Origin: Candidatus Fervidifonticultor secundus
GTDB taxonomy: Bacteria > Sysuimicrobiota > Sysuimicrobiia > Sysuimicrobiales > Humicultoraceae
NCBI GenBank assembly: GCA_031459385.1
Contig: JAVKIP010000004.1
Coordinates: forward strand, 1 to 64,000
Length of the DNA: 64,000 nt
Direction of reading: 5' to 3'
The position numbers were made by a program. Every line of letters begins with the position of its first letter. Positions within the stretch are counted from its first letter, which is position 1. Positions 33,001 through 36,000 of this stretch are shown here, in pieces.

Positions 33001-36000
33001 CTCTTGAGGGCTTCCTGTCAGGCCTGGCCGGCGGGGAACCGCACGGCTGGTCTCGAACCCCCGCCTGGGACCCCTCAATGGCGAAGGGGGAGTGCACATG
33101 ATCGAACGTCTGTTTGCGGAAATCGATGCCGCCCGAGACGCCTTGGTGGCGCTCCGGCGCGACCTGCACGCCCACCCGGAACTGGGCTTCCAGGAGGTCC
33201 GCACCAGCGGGATCGTGGCGGAACGGCTGCGCGCCGCGGGGCTGGCCGTGCGGACCGGGCTGGCCACCACCGGCGTGGCCGGGGTGCTCCGGGGCGCACG
33301 GCCCGGGCCCAGCGTCCTCGTCAGGGCCGATATCGACGCCCTCCCCATCGAGGAGGCCAACACCGTCCCCTACCGGAGCCAGCGGGCCGGGGTGATGCAC
33401 GCCTGAGGGCACGACGGGCACACCGCGGTCGCGGTGGTGGTCGCGGAACTCCTGGCCCGGCAGCGGGACCGGCTGCCGGGGGCGCTCGTCTTCGCCTTCC
33501 AGCCCGCCGAAGAGATCGTCGCCGGCGCCAGGCCCATGATCGAGGCTGGCGTGATGGACGACCCGAAGGTGGATGCCGTCGTCGGGCTGCACCTGTGGAA
33601 CGACCTGCCGGCAGGGGTCGTCGGCGTCCGCGCCGGTGCGGTCTTCGCCGCGGCCGACGAACTCGAGGTCGTGGTGGAAGGGCGTGGCGGCCACGGCGGC
33701 ATCCCGCATCAGGCCGCCGATCCGATTCTGGCCGCCGCGCACATCGTGACCGCGCTGCAGGCCATCGTCAGTCGGGAGACGCCGCCGCTGGACGCCGCGG
33801 TGGTTTCATTTGGGACGATCCAGGCGGGCACGGCCTTCAACATCATTCCCGACCGTGTGGAGCTGCGCGGCACGGTGCGGACCTTCGCGCCCGAGGTCCG
33901 CGAGCGGACGTTGCGGCGGATTCAGGAGATCGCCACCGGCGTGGCGGGAGCCCTGCGCGGGCGGGCCGAGGTCATCACGCGGCCGGGCTGTCCGGTCGTG
34001 CGCAACGACCCCGGGGTGACCGACGTCGTGCGCCGCGTGGCGGAGGAGGTCGTGGGCGCGGACCGCGTCGAGGAGATGCAGCCCACCACCGGGAGCGACG
34101 ACATGGCGTACTTCCTGGAGCGCGCGCCCGGCTGCTACTTCGTGGTCGGCTCCCACAACCGCGACCGCGGGCTGGACGGCCGACACCACACCGACCGGTT
34201 CGACTTCGACGAAGACGCGCTGACGGTGGCCGCCAAGGTACTAGGCGGCGCGGCCGTGCGGCTGCTGGAGGGCGCCGGCTAGGCGGGCGGTCGCAGCACC
34301 TCGCCCACGAACGCGTCCAGGGCCGCCGTCGCCGGCGGCGGCGCGGCGACGAACACCCGCCACGCCCCGCGCACCCGGTCCACCGTCTCCGGCGCCAGGA
34401 GCGCTGGGAGCGGTGGCTCGGTCCAGGGAAGCGCGTCGACCTGGAGGGCGGCCTCGTCACAGTAGTCCAGGGTCGCGTCGAGGAAGTCGCGCAGGGAACG
34501 CCCGGCCAGCTCGGGTACGGGCGGAGGCCGGTCCCACCGGTCGGCGAACGCGGCAGTCAGGAGCTGGATCAGCGCCGCCAGAGTGCCCAGGGCCCGCGCG
34601 CCGTCCCAGCGCGCCTGAATGCTCTGCGCGGTCGGCCCGCTCGCCAGCGCGCTCACGTGCATCGCCTCGGCGGCGGCCGCCGCCAGCGCCAGCCTAATGG
34701 CCCCGCCCAGGCGGTCACCCGCGTCCGTCCGGCCCACCAGGTGGCGCAGGATCGCGGCGGCGGCATCGTGCGCCTTCCGCGCGTGTGCCGGCGTGGTGAT
34801 GCGCGGCATCGTCACCCGGCGGGCGAACAGGTCGCCGACCAGCACCGGCAGCCACTCCGGGTGGTCGTAGCGCGACGGGTGGCTGGCAAGGCGTCGCCGC
34901 AGGGCAGCCAGGGCGCGGGCGCCCAGCGACCCCGAGGCGTCCAGGGCGATCCGCAGGGGGAGGAACACCAGCGCGCCCCACACGATCAGCGCGAAGATCC
35001 AGCGGTCCAGTCCCCACCCGGCCAGCTGCATCGCGCCGAGGGTCAGGAAGAACCCGACAACACACCCCCCCAGCAGCCAGCGCGCCACGAGCGCACGCCT
35101 GCGCCCCTCGGCGAGCCGCGCAAGCCACAGGTGCATCGCCATCGTCCTTCCAGTTTCGCGCCAGGTGCTCACAACCCTTGCCGGCCGGCGGTGGTAGGGG
35201 CCGGCCGCGCCCCGCCACCCGGGCGCGCGGCCCGCAAGCGGGAACGCGGCGGGCGCAGGGGTCGTTCATCTCGTAGCACGGCGTCCTGGGGGCGGGGAGG
35301 CGGCCATGGTGCGCGGGGTCGTCTGGGCGGCGGTGCTCGTGACGCAGGCGGTCACGCTCCTGCCGGTCGGCGTCTTCCAGATCGAGCCCGGCGCCAGCCG
35401 TGTGGAGTTCGTCATGCGCGACAACCGCGGCGGGTTTACCGGCAGCACTGACCGCGTCGAAGGCGTCGTGCACGTGCGCCAGGCCAACGGCGATGCGTTC
35501 GCTGCCACCGTGGAGGCCCGCGTGGACGCCCGGGCCCTGTCCACCGGGATCGGCCTGCGCGACGCGCAGATGCGCCGCGACTTCCTGCAGACCGACCGGT
35601 ATCCCCACATCGTGTTCCGCGGCGCCGTCACCACCCGCGACCGCCCCACAGCCCTCCGCATCGCGGCGGTGGCGCGCGGGACGCTGACGGTCCGCGACGT
35701 CACCCGCGACGTCGAGATTCCGCTGGAGGTCACCGCGCTCACCGACGAGTACCTGGCCGCCGGGGAGACCACGATCCGGCTGTCGGCCTTCGGGATTCCC
35801 ATCCCCCGCTTCCTGATCTTCGCGGCCGAGGATCCGGTGACAGTGCGGCTGCGGGTGCGCGTGCGGCGCGGGTAGCGCGCCGGCTCCAGGAGAGGCGTCC
35901 CGCGCGTCGAATTGTGGCGGGCGTGGACGCGGCTCTGGCGTACGCCCGCGAGCACCGCACGCGCTTCCTCAGCGAACTCGTGGATCTGCTGCGCATCCCC

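Follow-up and report, generated by a model that had tools for sequence, protein, structure and literature searches.

We identified in the window, the whole stretch of 64,000 nucleotides of DNA analyzed here, an M20D amidohydrolase gene with 1 in-frame TGA at a metal-binding position. With a probability of roughly 0.86, we consider it a single functional gene in which UGA codon 103 is recoded to selenocysteine (Sec) via a hairpin, giving an enzyme with a selenolate-bridged dinuclear center. In the proposed mechanism, UGA codon 103 would be decoded as selenocysteine by SelA, SelB, SelD, and tRNA-Sec; a short intragenic hairpin (CACCGC/GCGGUG, loop GGUC) lying 14 nt past the UGA would direct the recoding, and Sec would take the place of the Cys that bridges the 2 catalytic metals in solved M20D enzymes. 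The gene and its landmarks are the following.

33098..34282, + strand: M20D (TIGR01891) amidohydrolase gene, 394 codons including 1 putative Sec-UGA, with the TAG stop at 34280-34282
33084..33092, + strand: purine-rich AAGGGGGAG, likely ribosome-binding site judging from its sequence, 5 nt 5' of the ATG at 33098
33404..33406, + strand: in-frame TGA (residue 103) proposed to encode Sec in place of the Cys of MHACGHDGH

The TGA lies in the context GTG ATG CAC GCC TGA GGG CAC GAC GGG CAC, which would be read as V-M-H-A-U-G-H-D-G-H. An earlier note had described 1 M20D gene of 394 aa with an in-frame TGA at the motif Cys, and direct reading of the frame from ATG to TAG, with a single TGA, agrees with it. 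The read-through product (394 aa) matched TIGR01891 at 1.1e-111 with 373.5 bits, above the cut-off of 153.75, and both Peptidase_M20 (9.3e-43) and M20_dimer (1.8e-13, as an inserted dimer domain) were recovered from Pfam, so the family assignment over the whole length also holds. The label "CpsA type" given in the same note is less secure, with NF040868 scoring 389.9 against an NCBIfam equivalog cut-off of 500 bits. The DoeB2 equivalog (NF038260) was likewise below its cut-off (298 versus 550 bits), and no selenoprotein-specific model was identified among the NCBIfam matches of this protein. An AlphaFold2 model of the read-through protein gave 1 M20D fold (pLDDT 94.2, pTM 0.91), with 4EWT (TM 0.92), 6SLF (0.88), 1YSJ, and 1XMB as the closest solved structures.

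Orthologs were collected at E<=1e-100 from 94 genomes of the order, the phylum-wide set consisting of the same 94 genomes. An ortholog was identified in 18 of them, all intact at 391-398 aa apart from the TGA codon. The motif codon is TGA in 5 of these, from 3 genera (G000, 2 congeners at 88% identity, and 2 from other genera at 71-72%), and Cys in 13 (65-75% identity; TGC in 12 and TGT in 1); the 5 carriers amount to only 3 Sec lineages, related carriers not being independent. All 5 TGA codons and all 13 Cys codons were read, which places the TGA of the relatives at the identical position and bears out the earlier statements that it is shared and that the TGA-free orthologs have Cys. In an alignment of 240 proteins, the motif column held C in 202 and TGA in 38, with no third state. 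MHACGHD was present at the aligned site in 5 of 5 PDB homologues, and among the matches listed, 88 motif codons of distant Cys homologues (37-53% identity), which served as Cys controls, were all TGC or TGT. At least 8-12 Cys/Sec switches were required by the family tree, in which the Sec forms group in clades of up to 7 members. The dN/dS ratio 3' of the TGA was 0.14-0.27 for Sec-Sec pairs and 0.15-0.19 for Cys-Cys or Sec-Cys pairs, with 0.14-0.27 on either side of the codon, and purifying selection persists across and past the TGA.

An assembly artefact at this codon is unlikely, with 2 DNA runs agreeing with the TGA site, although the sequence analyzed here may itself derive from those runs. 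The RNA-library run X4 yielded 1 identical contig of 206 nt (32996-33201) and none for the gene past about 33250, contigs of this kind being unable to show absence. Run X5 had a small share, and its matches to the stretch were short pieces of conserved motifs, all belonging to other organisms.

We searched metagenomes with 1 fixed pattern, MHA-TGA-GHDxH, which misses motif variants and AbgB/HmrA-like forms, and obtained 57 loci, 57 of which were M20D homologues at 31-87% identity. Of these loci, 31 were closed and full length, and 24 run off the contig. A premature downstream stop was identified in 4, namely L125 and L142 (closed but short) and L127 and L135 (running off the contig).

These data bear on the simplest alternative, a true stop, under which the locus would be a pseudogene or would encode a fragment of 102 aa and a separate protein of 282 aa starting at GTG 33434. 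Such a reading agrees with the table 11 ORF listing and with gene callers, which split the locus in two, with the fragments of 282-295 aa at 73-99% identity in public protein collections, and with the further premature stop in 4 of the 57 loci; TGA is also a normal terminator in this genome, ending 4 of the 12 Pfam-backed genes of the window. We nevertheless regard a true stop as highly improbable. The identical codon recurs in 3 genera and 57 metagenome loci, Sec clades reach 7 members, the hairpins covary, and a second lesion is absent from all 5 genome copies and from 53 of the 57 loci. The low dN/dS holds on both sides of the TGA, nearly all variation in the 9 codons from the TGA to the GTG, which encode the invariant G-H-D-G-H, falls at third positions, and residues of both pieces are required for the catalytic site. 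None of the full-length entries in public collections exceeds 76% identity, and 6 entries of 282-295 aa cover just the C-terminal ~72% of the query; databases appear to contain Sec-type M20D genes solely as truncated fragments. Because gene callers split these genes, censuses and annotation pipelines miss a family of at least 57 metagenome contigs.

The single recoded gene that we favor would require a Sec machinery, and this was identified in the host genome, with a tRNA-Sec, selB (367.6 bits), selA (548.9 bits), and selD (388.2 bits). The selD gene is itself of the Sec type, with an in-frame TGA in ...CAG-U-ASKL. A Sec-type FdhA was sought in the genome and not found, the best match (69.4 bits) being without an in-frame stop. 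SelB scored above the cut-off in 29 of 34 genomes of the family, all 5 TGA carriers among them. A close Cys paralogue is absent from the host genome, where the sole further match is 35% identical. The normal use of TGA as a terminator in this genome also counts in favor of recoding at codon 103.

The candidate hairpin follows the TGA closely, and its parts are given below.

33407..33420, + strand: spacer of 14 nt from UGA to hairpin, encoding G-H-D-G-H (first bases)
33421..33426, + strand: 5' arm CACCGC of the proposed bacterial SECIS
33427..33430, + strand: apical loop GGUC, 20 nt past the UGA
33431..33436, + strand: 3' arm GCGGUG, the whole hairpin having -9.3 kcal/mol
33423..33446, + strand: alternative 10-bp hairpin CCGCGGUCGC-GGUG-GUGGUCGCGG, the minimum-energy fold, probably specific to this copy

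The hairpin CACCGCGGTCGCGGTG occupies 33421-33436, its first base being the 15th after the UGA, and it is identical in 5 of 5 TGA forms. The published bSECIS model comprises a loop of 3-9 nt with G in the first 2 positions, a stem of 4-16 bp, a distance of 16-37 nt from the UGA, and an energy of <= -7.5 kcal/mol (PMC13188914). The window hairpin agrees with this model in all 4 respects, with a 4-nt loop beginning GG, a 6-bp stem, 20 nt, and -9.3 kcal/mol. Across the 18 nt that contain the hairpin, inter-lineage pairs were identical in 7 of 7 Sec-Sec comparisons versus 0 of 68 Cys-Cys comparisons (mean 3.76 differences), while flanking control windows diverged about equally in both kinds of pair; the hairpin region is frozen in Sec forms only. 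The spacer of the Sec forms varies only at third codon positions, bar a Gly/Ala change at codon +4, as is typical of sequence that is translated. The alternative pairing was judged weaker, from the codons, in G001 and G002, and the best hairpin in the other Sec forms was the 6-bp one.

Several results limit what the hairpin of this gene can say by itself. Over the 60 nt past the UGA, folding was no better than in shuffles (z -0.22), and fold energy is therefore not counted as evidence. In this genome of 72% G+C, 2712 open-flanked TGAs are followed by a hairpin that fits the bSECIS model, which therefore has low specificity here, and filtering by GC3 yielded 81 TGAs as candidates for read-through, that of the M20D gene among them but not that of selD. 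No obvious motif was shared between the hairpin and the post-UGA region of the host selD, and Rfam gave 0 matches over the whole window at the gathering threshold. The amino acids T-A-V-A-V force 4 of the 6 stem pairs. Since all 6 pairs are retained in 8 of the 13 Cys orthologs, 1 of which (G017) has the identical 18 nt, the hairpin may predate Sec, and its conservation is partly at the protein level. The earlier note had pointed to a conserved hairpin 15 nt after the UGA; its position and its identity in the 5 forms stand, but taken alone it is weak as proof, given T-A-V-A-V, the 8 Cys forms, and the G+C content.

The metagenome loci extend this comparison. They carry 2 classes of hairpin, with compensatory changes at synonymous sites. 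In class I (13 sequences), 100% of the cells were paired, and 1 pair was C-G in 9 and A-U in 2. At stem pair 21-30, L169 and L174 have A-U in place of C-G. Class II (32 sequences, 27 distinct) was 85.2% paired and had a covariation score of 0.234 versus 0.111 for shuffles, with 0 of 500 as high; its pair 21-39, which joins 2 synonymous third positions, was CG in 17, GC in 6, GU in 2, UG in 2, and unpaired in 0. A model-conforming hairpin at <= -7.5 kcal/mol was identified in 46 of 60 Sec forms versus 16 of 100 Cys forms, and among sequences with a G+C of at least 0.62, in 41 of 49 Sec forms versus 15 of 46 Cys forms. A strong hairpin was absent in some divergent metagenome singletons, which could be sequencing errors or pseudogenes.

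The covariation and the machinery also bear on the possibility that the UGA is read through but as something other than Sec, either by near-cognate insertion of Cys, Trp, or Arg or by a tRNA-Sec mischarged with Ser or Cys, which would leave a Cys-type or crippled enzyme. Cys is the ancestral residue, and a UGA, which is 1 base away from TGC and TGT, could be tolerable at low read-through. Against this, SelB is present in every TGA-carrying genome, leaky read-through has no need of a TGA-specific hairpin that is frozen or covaries, and persistence in many lineages, in a host that has no Cys paralogue, points to efficient decoding. We accordingly give non-Sec read-through very little weight and favor decoding as Sec.

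M20D enzymes have the metal-ligand set Cys-His-Glu-His-His plus a general-base Glu, and the corresponding codons of the window gene were located.

33410..33412, + strand: His105 codon, invariant (240 of 240 in the alignment)
33509..33514, + strand: Glu138-Glu139 codons, each 240 of 240 in the alignment
33590..33592, + strand: His165 codon, invariant in the 240-protein alignment
34187..34189, + strand: His364 codon, 239 of 240 in the alignment

We take His105, His165, and His364 to be metal ligands and Glu138-Glu139 to be, presumably, the general base and a further metal ligand. The motif of 6SLF aligns to residues 100-106 of the read-through protein. In that enzyme, CsAga, 1 Cys bridges 2 Zn ions, according to a review (PMC11511702). 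By homology, we infer the Se-metal bond and the identity of the metals, and Sec103 would place a selenolate in a metallopeptidase site, the resulting enzyme having a selenolate-bridged dinuclear center with His105, Glu139, His165, His364, and the base Glu138 unchanged.

Sec might instead be inserted without bridging metals: the site could be mononuclear or lack metal, or the residue could act as an on-off switch of the hydrolase, either redox or regulatory. Redox proteins make up most of the known selenoproteins (PMC13188914), metal occupancy varies in M20, and 1 fold match is titled as a mono-zinc DapE. In the Sec forms, however, the general base and the remaining presumed ligands are invariant, superposition of the model on dinuclear M20D structures gave TM 0.88-0.92, and the Cys at the equivalent place in CsAga is the bridging one (PMC11511702). 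A non-bridging Sec thus has only a slim chance in our estimate, and a bridging selenolate is the reading we retain.

The closest known systems are the Cys-type M20D enzymes, including B. subtilis YxeP (1YSJ), Arabidopsis ILL2 (1XMB), S. aureus 4EWT, and Corynebacterium CsAga (6SLF). The window protein shares their fold and the order of their domains (E 2.7e-87 to 4.8e-54 by sequence, TM 0.79-0.92), the MHA-x-GHD motif, and the invariant His/Glu/His/His set, and differs in that x is UGA rather than TGC or TGT and is followed by a hairpin under RNA-level constraint. Sec as a direct metal ligand with coexisting Cys homologues is known from FdhA (Mo/W) and the [NiFeSe] hydrogenases (PMC13188914). 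The M20D protein would resemble these in having Sec in place of a Cys metal ligand, whereas they are redox enzymes with redox-active metals and M20D would have a hydrolytic dinuclear center, whose reaction includes no redox step. YgeY, an M20 protein annotated as a "selenium metabolism-linked hydrolase" (NF009555), is tied to selenium by genome context and is not itself a selenoprotein; its link, according to PMC2276186, is to selenium-dependent molybdenum hydroxylases, and its model matched the M20D protein weakly (8.8e-06, 24.8 bits, cut-off 321).

The absence of the family from the table of PMC13188914, claimed earlier, was confirmed over all 119 entries: no row of Table 1 (119 families/subfamilies) names M20, a peptidase, or an amidohydrolase, and in the text, peptidase, amidohydrolase, M20, and hydrolase each have 0 occurrences. 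Literature text searches returned no published report of a Sec-type M20D. Dozens of uncultured bacteria share this TGA arrangement, and M20D might be a widespread, overlooked selenoprotein family, the first with Sec bridging a non-redox hydrolytic dinuclear metal center, in which H-T-A-V/I-A/G pre-adapts the Cys codon to SelB, a broader proposal that we offer tentatively. The sequence past the ligand codon (H-T-A-V/I-A/G-...) would intrinsically encode a hairpin at SECIS distance, and such pre-adaptation would explain the repeated Cys/Sec exchanges, at least 8-12 across several phyla. A selenolate bridging the 2 metals of a hydrolase would, if true, extend Sec chemistry beyond redox-active metals. 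With identities of 65-88% to the window protein, the orthologs (13 with Cys, 5 with Sec) form a natural series that could show the benefit of selenium to a Lewis-acid catalyst in metal affinity or selectivity, pKa, or resistance to oxidative inactivation, and models of the bacterial SECIS gain clear new examples from the 2 covarying hairpin classes.

The gene next to the M20D gene gives some indication of its pathway.

31917..32999, - strand: ornithine cyclodeaminase/mu-crystallin (OCD) family gene, divergent (Pfam 1.7e-67)

A gene of this family adjoins the M20D gene at 18 of 18 ortholog loci, and no NCBIfam equivalog was above its cut-off for the neighbor in the window. The 2 enzymes would probably act in a common pathway. 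As substrate, we infer an amino-acid derivative or dipeptide, from which an acyl or C-terminal group would probably be cleaved. Ectoine degradation, by DoeB2 with an EutC-like neighbor, was considered and rejected, both genes being far under the equivalog cut-offs. An M17 aminopeptidase gene is also adjacent.

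The M20D gene described below contains a single in-frame stop, the TGA at 33404-33406 (codon 103, context V-M-H-A-TGA-G-H-D-G-H), which we predict, with a probability of about 0.86, to be a genuine conserved selenocysteine (Sec) codon, in support of the earlier note's interpretation that Sec replaces Cys at this site.

33098-34282, + strand: M20D amidohydrolase gene, 394 residues on read-through, ATG at 33098 and TAG at 34280-34282
Five bases before the ATG at 33098, + strand: purine-rich AAGGGGGAG, read from sequence
33421-33436, + strand: hairpin CACCGC-GGUC-GCGGUG, 14 bases after UGA, -9.3 kcal/mol, loop starting 20 nt after UGA

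The 394-residue read-through product, P0001, matched TIGR01891 ("amidohydrolase") with 373.5 bits and 1.1e-111 (cut-off 153.75), and Peptidase_M20 (9.3e-43) with M20_dimer inserted (1.8e-13). Of the "ILR1/CpsA type" proposed earlier, the M20D family stood, but the CpsA equivalog model matched P0001 only below its cut-off (389.9 against 500 bits), as did the DoeB2 model (298 against 550 bits), and P0001 was therefore assigned as an M20D amidohydrolase without finer specificity. No selenoprotein-specific model was found among its NCBIfam 20.0 matches. The AlphaFold2 model of P0001, built with 36 database relatives, forms a single continuous fold (pLDDT 94.2, pTM 0.91) that superposes on 4EWT (TM 0.92) and 6SLF (0.88), as well as 1YSJ and 1XMB.

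The MHACGHD motif of all five solved homologues aligned to P0001 residues 100-106, and column 103 of a 240-member alignment held Cys in 202 members, the TGA position in 38, and nothing else, which places the TGA at the conserved metal-ligand Cys of MHACGHDGH, as had been claimed. This alignment drew on the 18 orthologs, 33 Sec forms from metagenomes, 112 proteins from databases, and about 80 distant copies from genomes, with the 38 Sec rows made up of the 33 metagenome and five genome TGA forms. His105, Glu138, Glu139, and His165 were invariant, and His364 was kept in 239 of the 240 members. The presumed five-ligand metal set of the M20D family would comprise residue 103, His105, Glu139, His165, and His364 of P0001. 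It follows from the alignment that residue 103 would be the bridging metal ligand, corresponding to the Cys that joins two Zn ions in CsAga (6SLF; PMC11511702).

Among the order's 94 genomes (order and phylum comprise the same 94 species-level genomes), 18 have an ortholog at E<=1e-100, all inside one family. The Cys/Sec split noted earlier was recovered at the same codon, with TGA in 5 orthologs (the genome under study, 2 congeners at 88% identity, and a single genome from each of 2 other genera at 71-72%) and Cys in 13 (TGC in 12, TGT in 1). All 18 genes are otherwise intact, encoding 391-398 aa, and the "1 TAG" flagged in some ortholog rows is the normal terminal stop. Downstream of the TGA, dN/dS was 0.14-0.27 for Sec-Sec pairs and 0.15-0.19 for Cys-Cys or Sec-Cys pairs, and upstream values were similar. 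The IQ-TREE ortholog tree contained three Cys/Sec state changes, at least two of them forced by well-supported branches, and the Sec clade of the genus under study was sister to two Cys forms (support 97/98). No close Cys paralogue was found in the genome under study, where the only other match is 35% identical. One Cys ortholog (P0034, 69% identity) has the NCBI source name "Armatimonadetes bacterium" MAG, the only taxon label seen for the M20D clade of P0001.

The conserved hairpin that the earlier note placed 15 nt after UGA was located at 33421-33436 and satisfies each of the four rules that PMC13188914 quotes for the bacterial SECIS model. Taken alone, this fit is weak evidence, because the 60-nt segment following UGA is no more stably folded than shuffled sequence (z -0.22), model-conforming hairpins lie 3' of 2712 open-flanked TGAs across the genome, the amino acids T-A-V-A-V dictate 4 of the 6 stem pairs, and all six pairs are retained in 8 of the 13 Cys orthologs, with the 18 nt identical in one. 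The gene copy of the genome under study, and no other, can also form a 10-bp hairpin with GGUG as its loop, which is the minimum-energy fold there. Comparing the two classes is more informative: the 18 nt were identical in 7 of 7 inter-lineage Sec-Sec pairs versus 0 of 68 inter-lineage Cys-Cys pairs (mean 3.76 differences), whereas ten-codon control windows on either side differed about equally in both classes (10.1 versus 11.8 and 5.6 versus 7.8). The identical 18-nt hairpin kept in a Cys ortholog is that of L017 (genome G017), and in another, L026 (G043), the stem is kept by a compensatory C-G to U-A change, with loop CAUC; these hairpins fit either a relic SECIS after a change from Sec to Cys or a hairpin older than Sec.

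The predicted M20D Sec family extends well beyond a single clade. When metagenome contigs were scanned with the degenerate pattern M-H-A-TGA-G-H-D-x-H, 57 loci were recovered, all encoding M20D homologues of P0001 (31-87% identity) in which the TGA is in frame. Of these, 31 were full length with both ends closed and 24 ran off the contig, with a further premature stop in 4 loci (L125 and L142, closed but short, and L127 and L135, among the run-offs). Among the 31 complete genes, the terminal stop is TGA in 16, TAA in 9, and TAG in 6, so TGA also serves as a stop in these organisms. Class I, the P0001 clade, has the hairpin of 33421-33436. Its 13 sequences (11 of them distinct) include the five copies from genomes and were paired in every cell, and one pair that joins the third position of a Thr codon to that of an Ala codon was C-G nine times and A-U twice. 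In class II (32 sequences, of which 27 are distinct, sharing 44-61% identity with P0001) the hairpin was CCGCCAU[C/G]-GG[G/U][C/G]U-[G/C]AUGGCGG, its loop lay 23-25 nt after UGA, and 85.2% of cells were paired; the covariation score was 0.234 versus 0.111 in shuffles (0 of 500 as high), with slid controls at or below 0.091. The class II pair 21-39, between two synonymous third positions, was CG in 17, GC in 6, GU in 2, and UG in 2, with none unpaired, and pair 27-33 was CG in 15, GC in 8, and other in 4.

Model-conforming hairpins at or below -7.5 kcal/mol followed 46 of 60 Sec codons versus 16 of 100 Cys codons, and 41 of 49 versus 15 of 46 at G+C of at least 0.62, counts that come from related sequences, so that p-values overstate the effect. 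With perfect stems scored and bulges disallowed, the best hairpin was weaker than -7.5 kcal/mol in 12 of the 60 Sec sequences and absent in one; these sequences could carry other SECIS forms or be errors or pseudogenes. In a FastTree phylogeny of the 240 proteins, the 38 Sec rows needed 16 state changes, of which supported branches force at least 12; without 7 weak-hairpin Sec rows, the remaining 31 needed 10, at least 8 of them forced. One Sec form was sister to a Cytophagales Cys form (support 99), and the nearest named tree neighbours weakly suggest that Sec carriers may occur in several phyla.

The genome under study (3.30 Mb, 59 contigs, 71.9% G+C) encodes a compact Sec-decoding locus at C12:151482-157010, with selA, selB, and tRNA-Sec within 5.5 kb on one strand, together with selD, all outside the window.

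C12:151482-151577, same strand as selA and selB: tRNA-Sec, anticodon tca
C12:153751-155619, same strand as selA and tRNA-Sec: selB, 367.6 bits
C12:155655-157010, same strand as selB and tRNA-Sec: selA, 548.9 bits
C1:104038-104961: selD, 388.2 bits, one internal TGA in ...LVACAG-TGA-ASKL...

Here selD is a selenoprotein gene too, with its TGA in the well-known CAG-U-ASKL context, and no obvious motif was common to its post-UGA region and the M20D hairpin. Elsewhere TGA works as a normal stop and terminates 4 of the 12 Pfam-supported genes of the window. SelB was above cut-off in 29 of 34 family genomes, including all five TGA carriers, a tally that takes in G010 and G019, which are flagged unpublished and enter this claim only. 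In the proposed mechanism, SelB would bind the GGUC hairpin while the ribosome stands on UGA and would bring Sec-tRNA-Sec to this codon, and the selenolate would occupy the bridging position between the two metals. Possible benefits of selenium include a lower pKa, a softer ligand altering the affinity or selectivity for metals, and readier recovery after oxidation. A GC3 filter across the whole genome returned 81 in-frame TGAs flanked on both sides by coding-like sequence; most are probably neighbouring genes in the same frame, and further selenoprotein genes may be among them. ARAGORN also called two "tRNA-???" genes of 92-94 nt (C2:56690-56781 and C45:71823-71916, with the unusual anticodon loops "(cagc)" and "(gc)"), which may represent tRNA-like elements, tRNAs with introns, or false calls.

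The earlier statement that the family is missing from the table of PMC13188914 holds, with no M20 peptidase or amidohydrolase among the 119 selenoprotein families and subfamilies in Table 1 of this 2026 review. Our search of full-text literature, a scope outside of which lie subscription journals and selenoproteome-survey supplements, found no report of an M20 or amidohydrolase selenoprotein. The top match, PMC5658510, concerns a Campylobacter without selenium genes. In a collection of 5.8 billion proteins, no full-length entry is more than 76% identical to P0001, even though orthologs at 88% are present in DNA, and it contained fragments of 282-295 aa at 73-99% identity (P0017, P0045, P0053, P0066, P0100, and P0101), which fits gene callers restarting after the TGA.

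Two "hot springs metagenome" DNA runs, possibly the source of the studied DNA, each contain the whole stretch in one contig with an identical TGA site. An RNA-library run from the same study yielded a single identical 206-nt contig over 32996-33201, which spans the promoter-proximal part and runs ~100 nt into the M20D gene, no more than a weak hint of its transcription.

The M20D gene stands alone on the + strand, divergent from an ornithine cyclodeaminase (OCD)/mu-crystallin family gene. Next to the latter comes an M17 leucyl aminopeptidase gene, and 5 kb downstream there is a peptide ABC transporter.

31917-32999, - strand: OCD/mu-crystallin family gene, Pfam match 1.7e-67, no NCBIfam equivalog reaching its cut-off
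34279-35172, - strand: 297-aa protein, directly downstream, its stop overlapping the M20D stop

No ORF passed the GC3-based coding filter in the 2.6 kb at 35900-38500, and a 799-aa minus-strand ORF (35266-37665) had no Pfam match. The OCD gene adjoins the M20D gene in all 18 ortholog loci, and this conserved divergent pair suggests a common uncharacterised pathway; we infer a role in amino-acid or peptide salvage, in which deacylation or C-terminal cleavage would feed the OCD-family enzyme. The 297-aa protein, without a Pfam or NCBIfam match, is encoded beside the M20D gene in 11 of the 18 loci, with 47-80% identity among the ten other loci.
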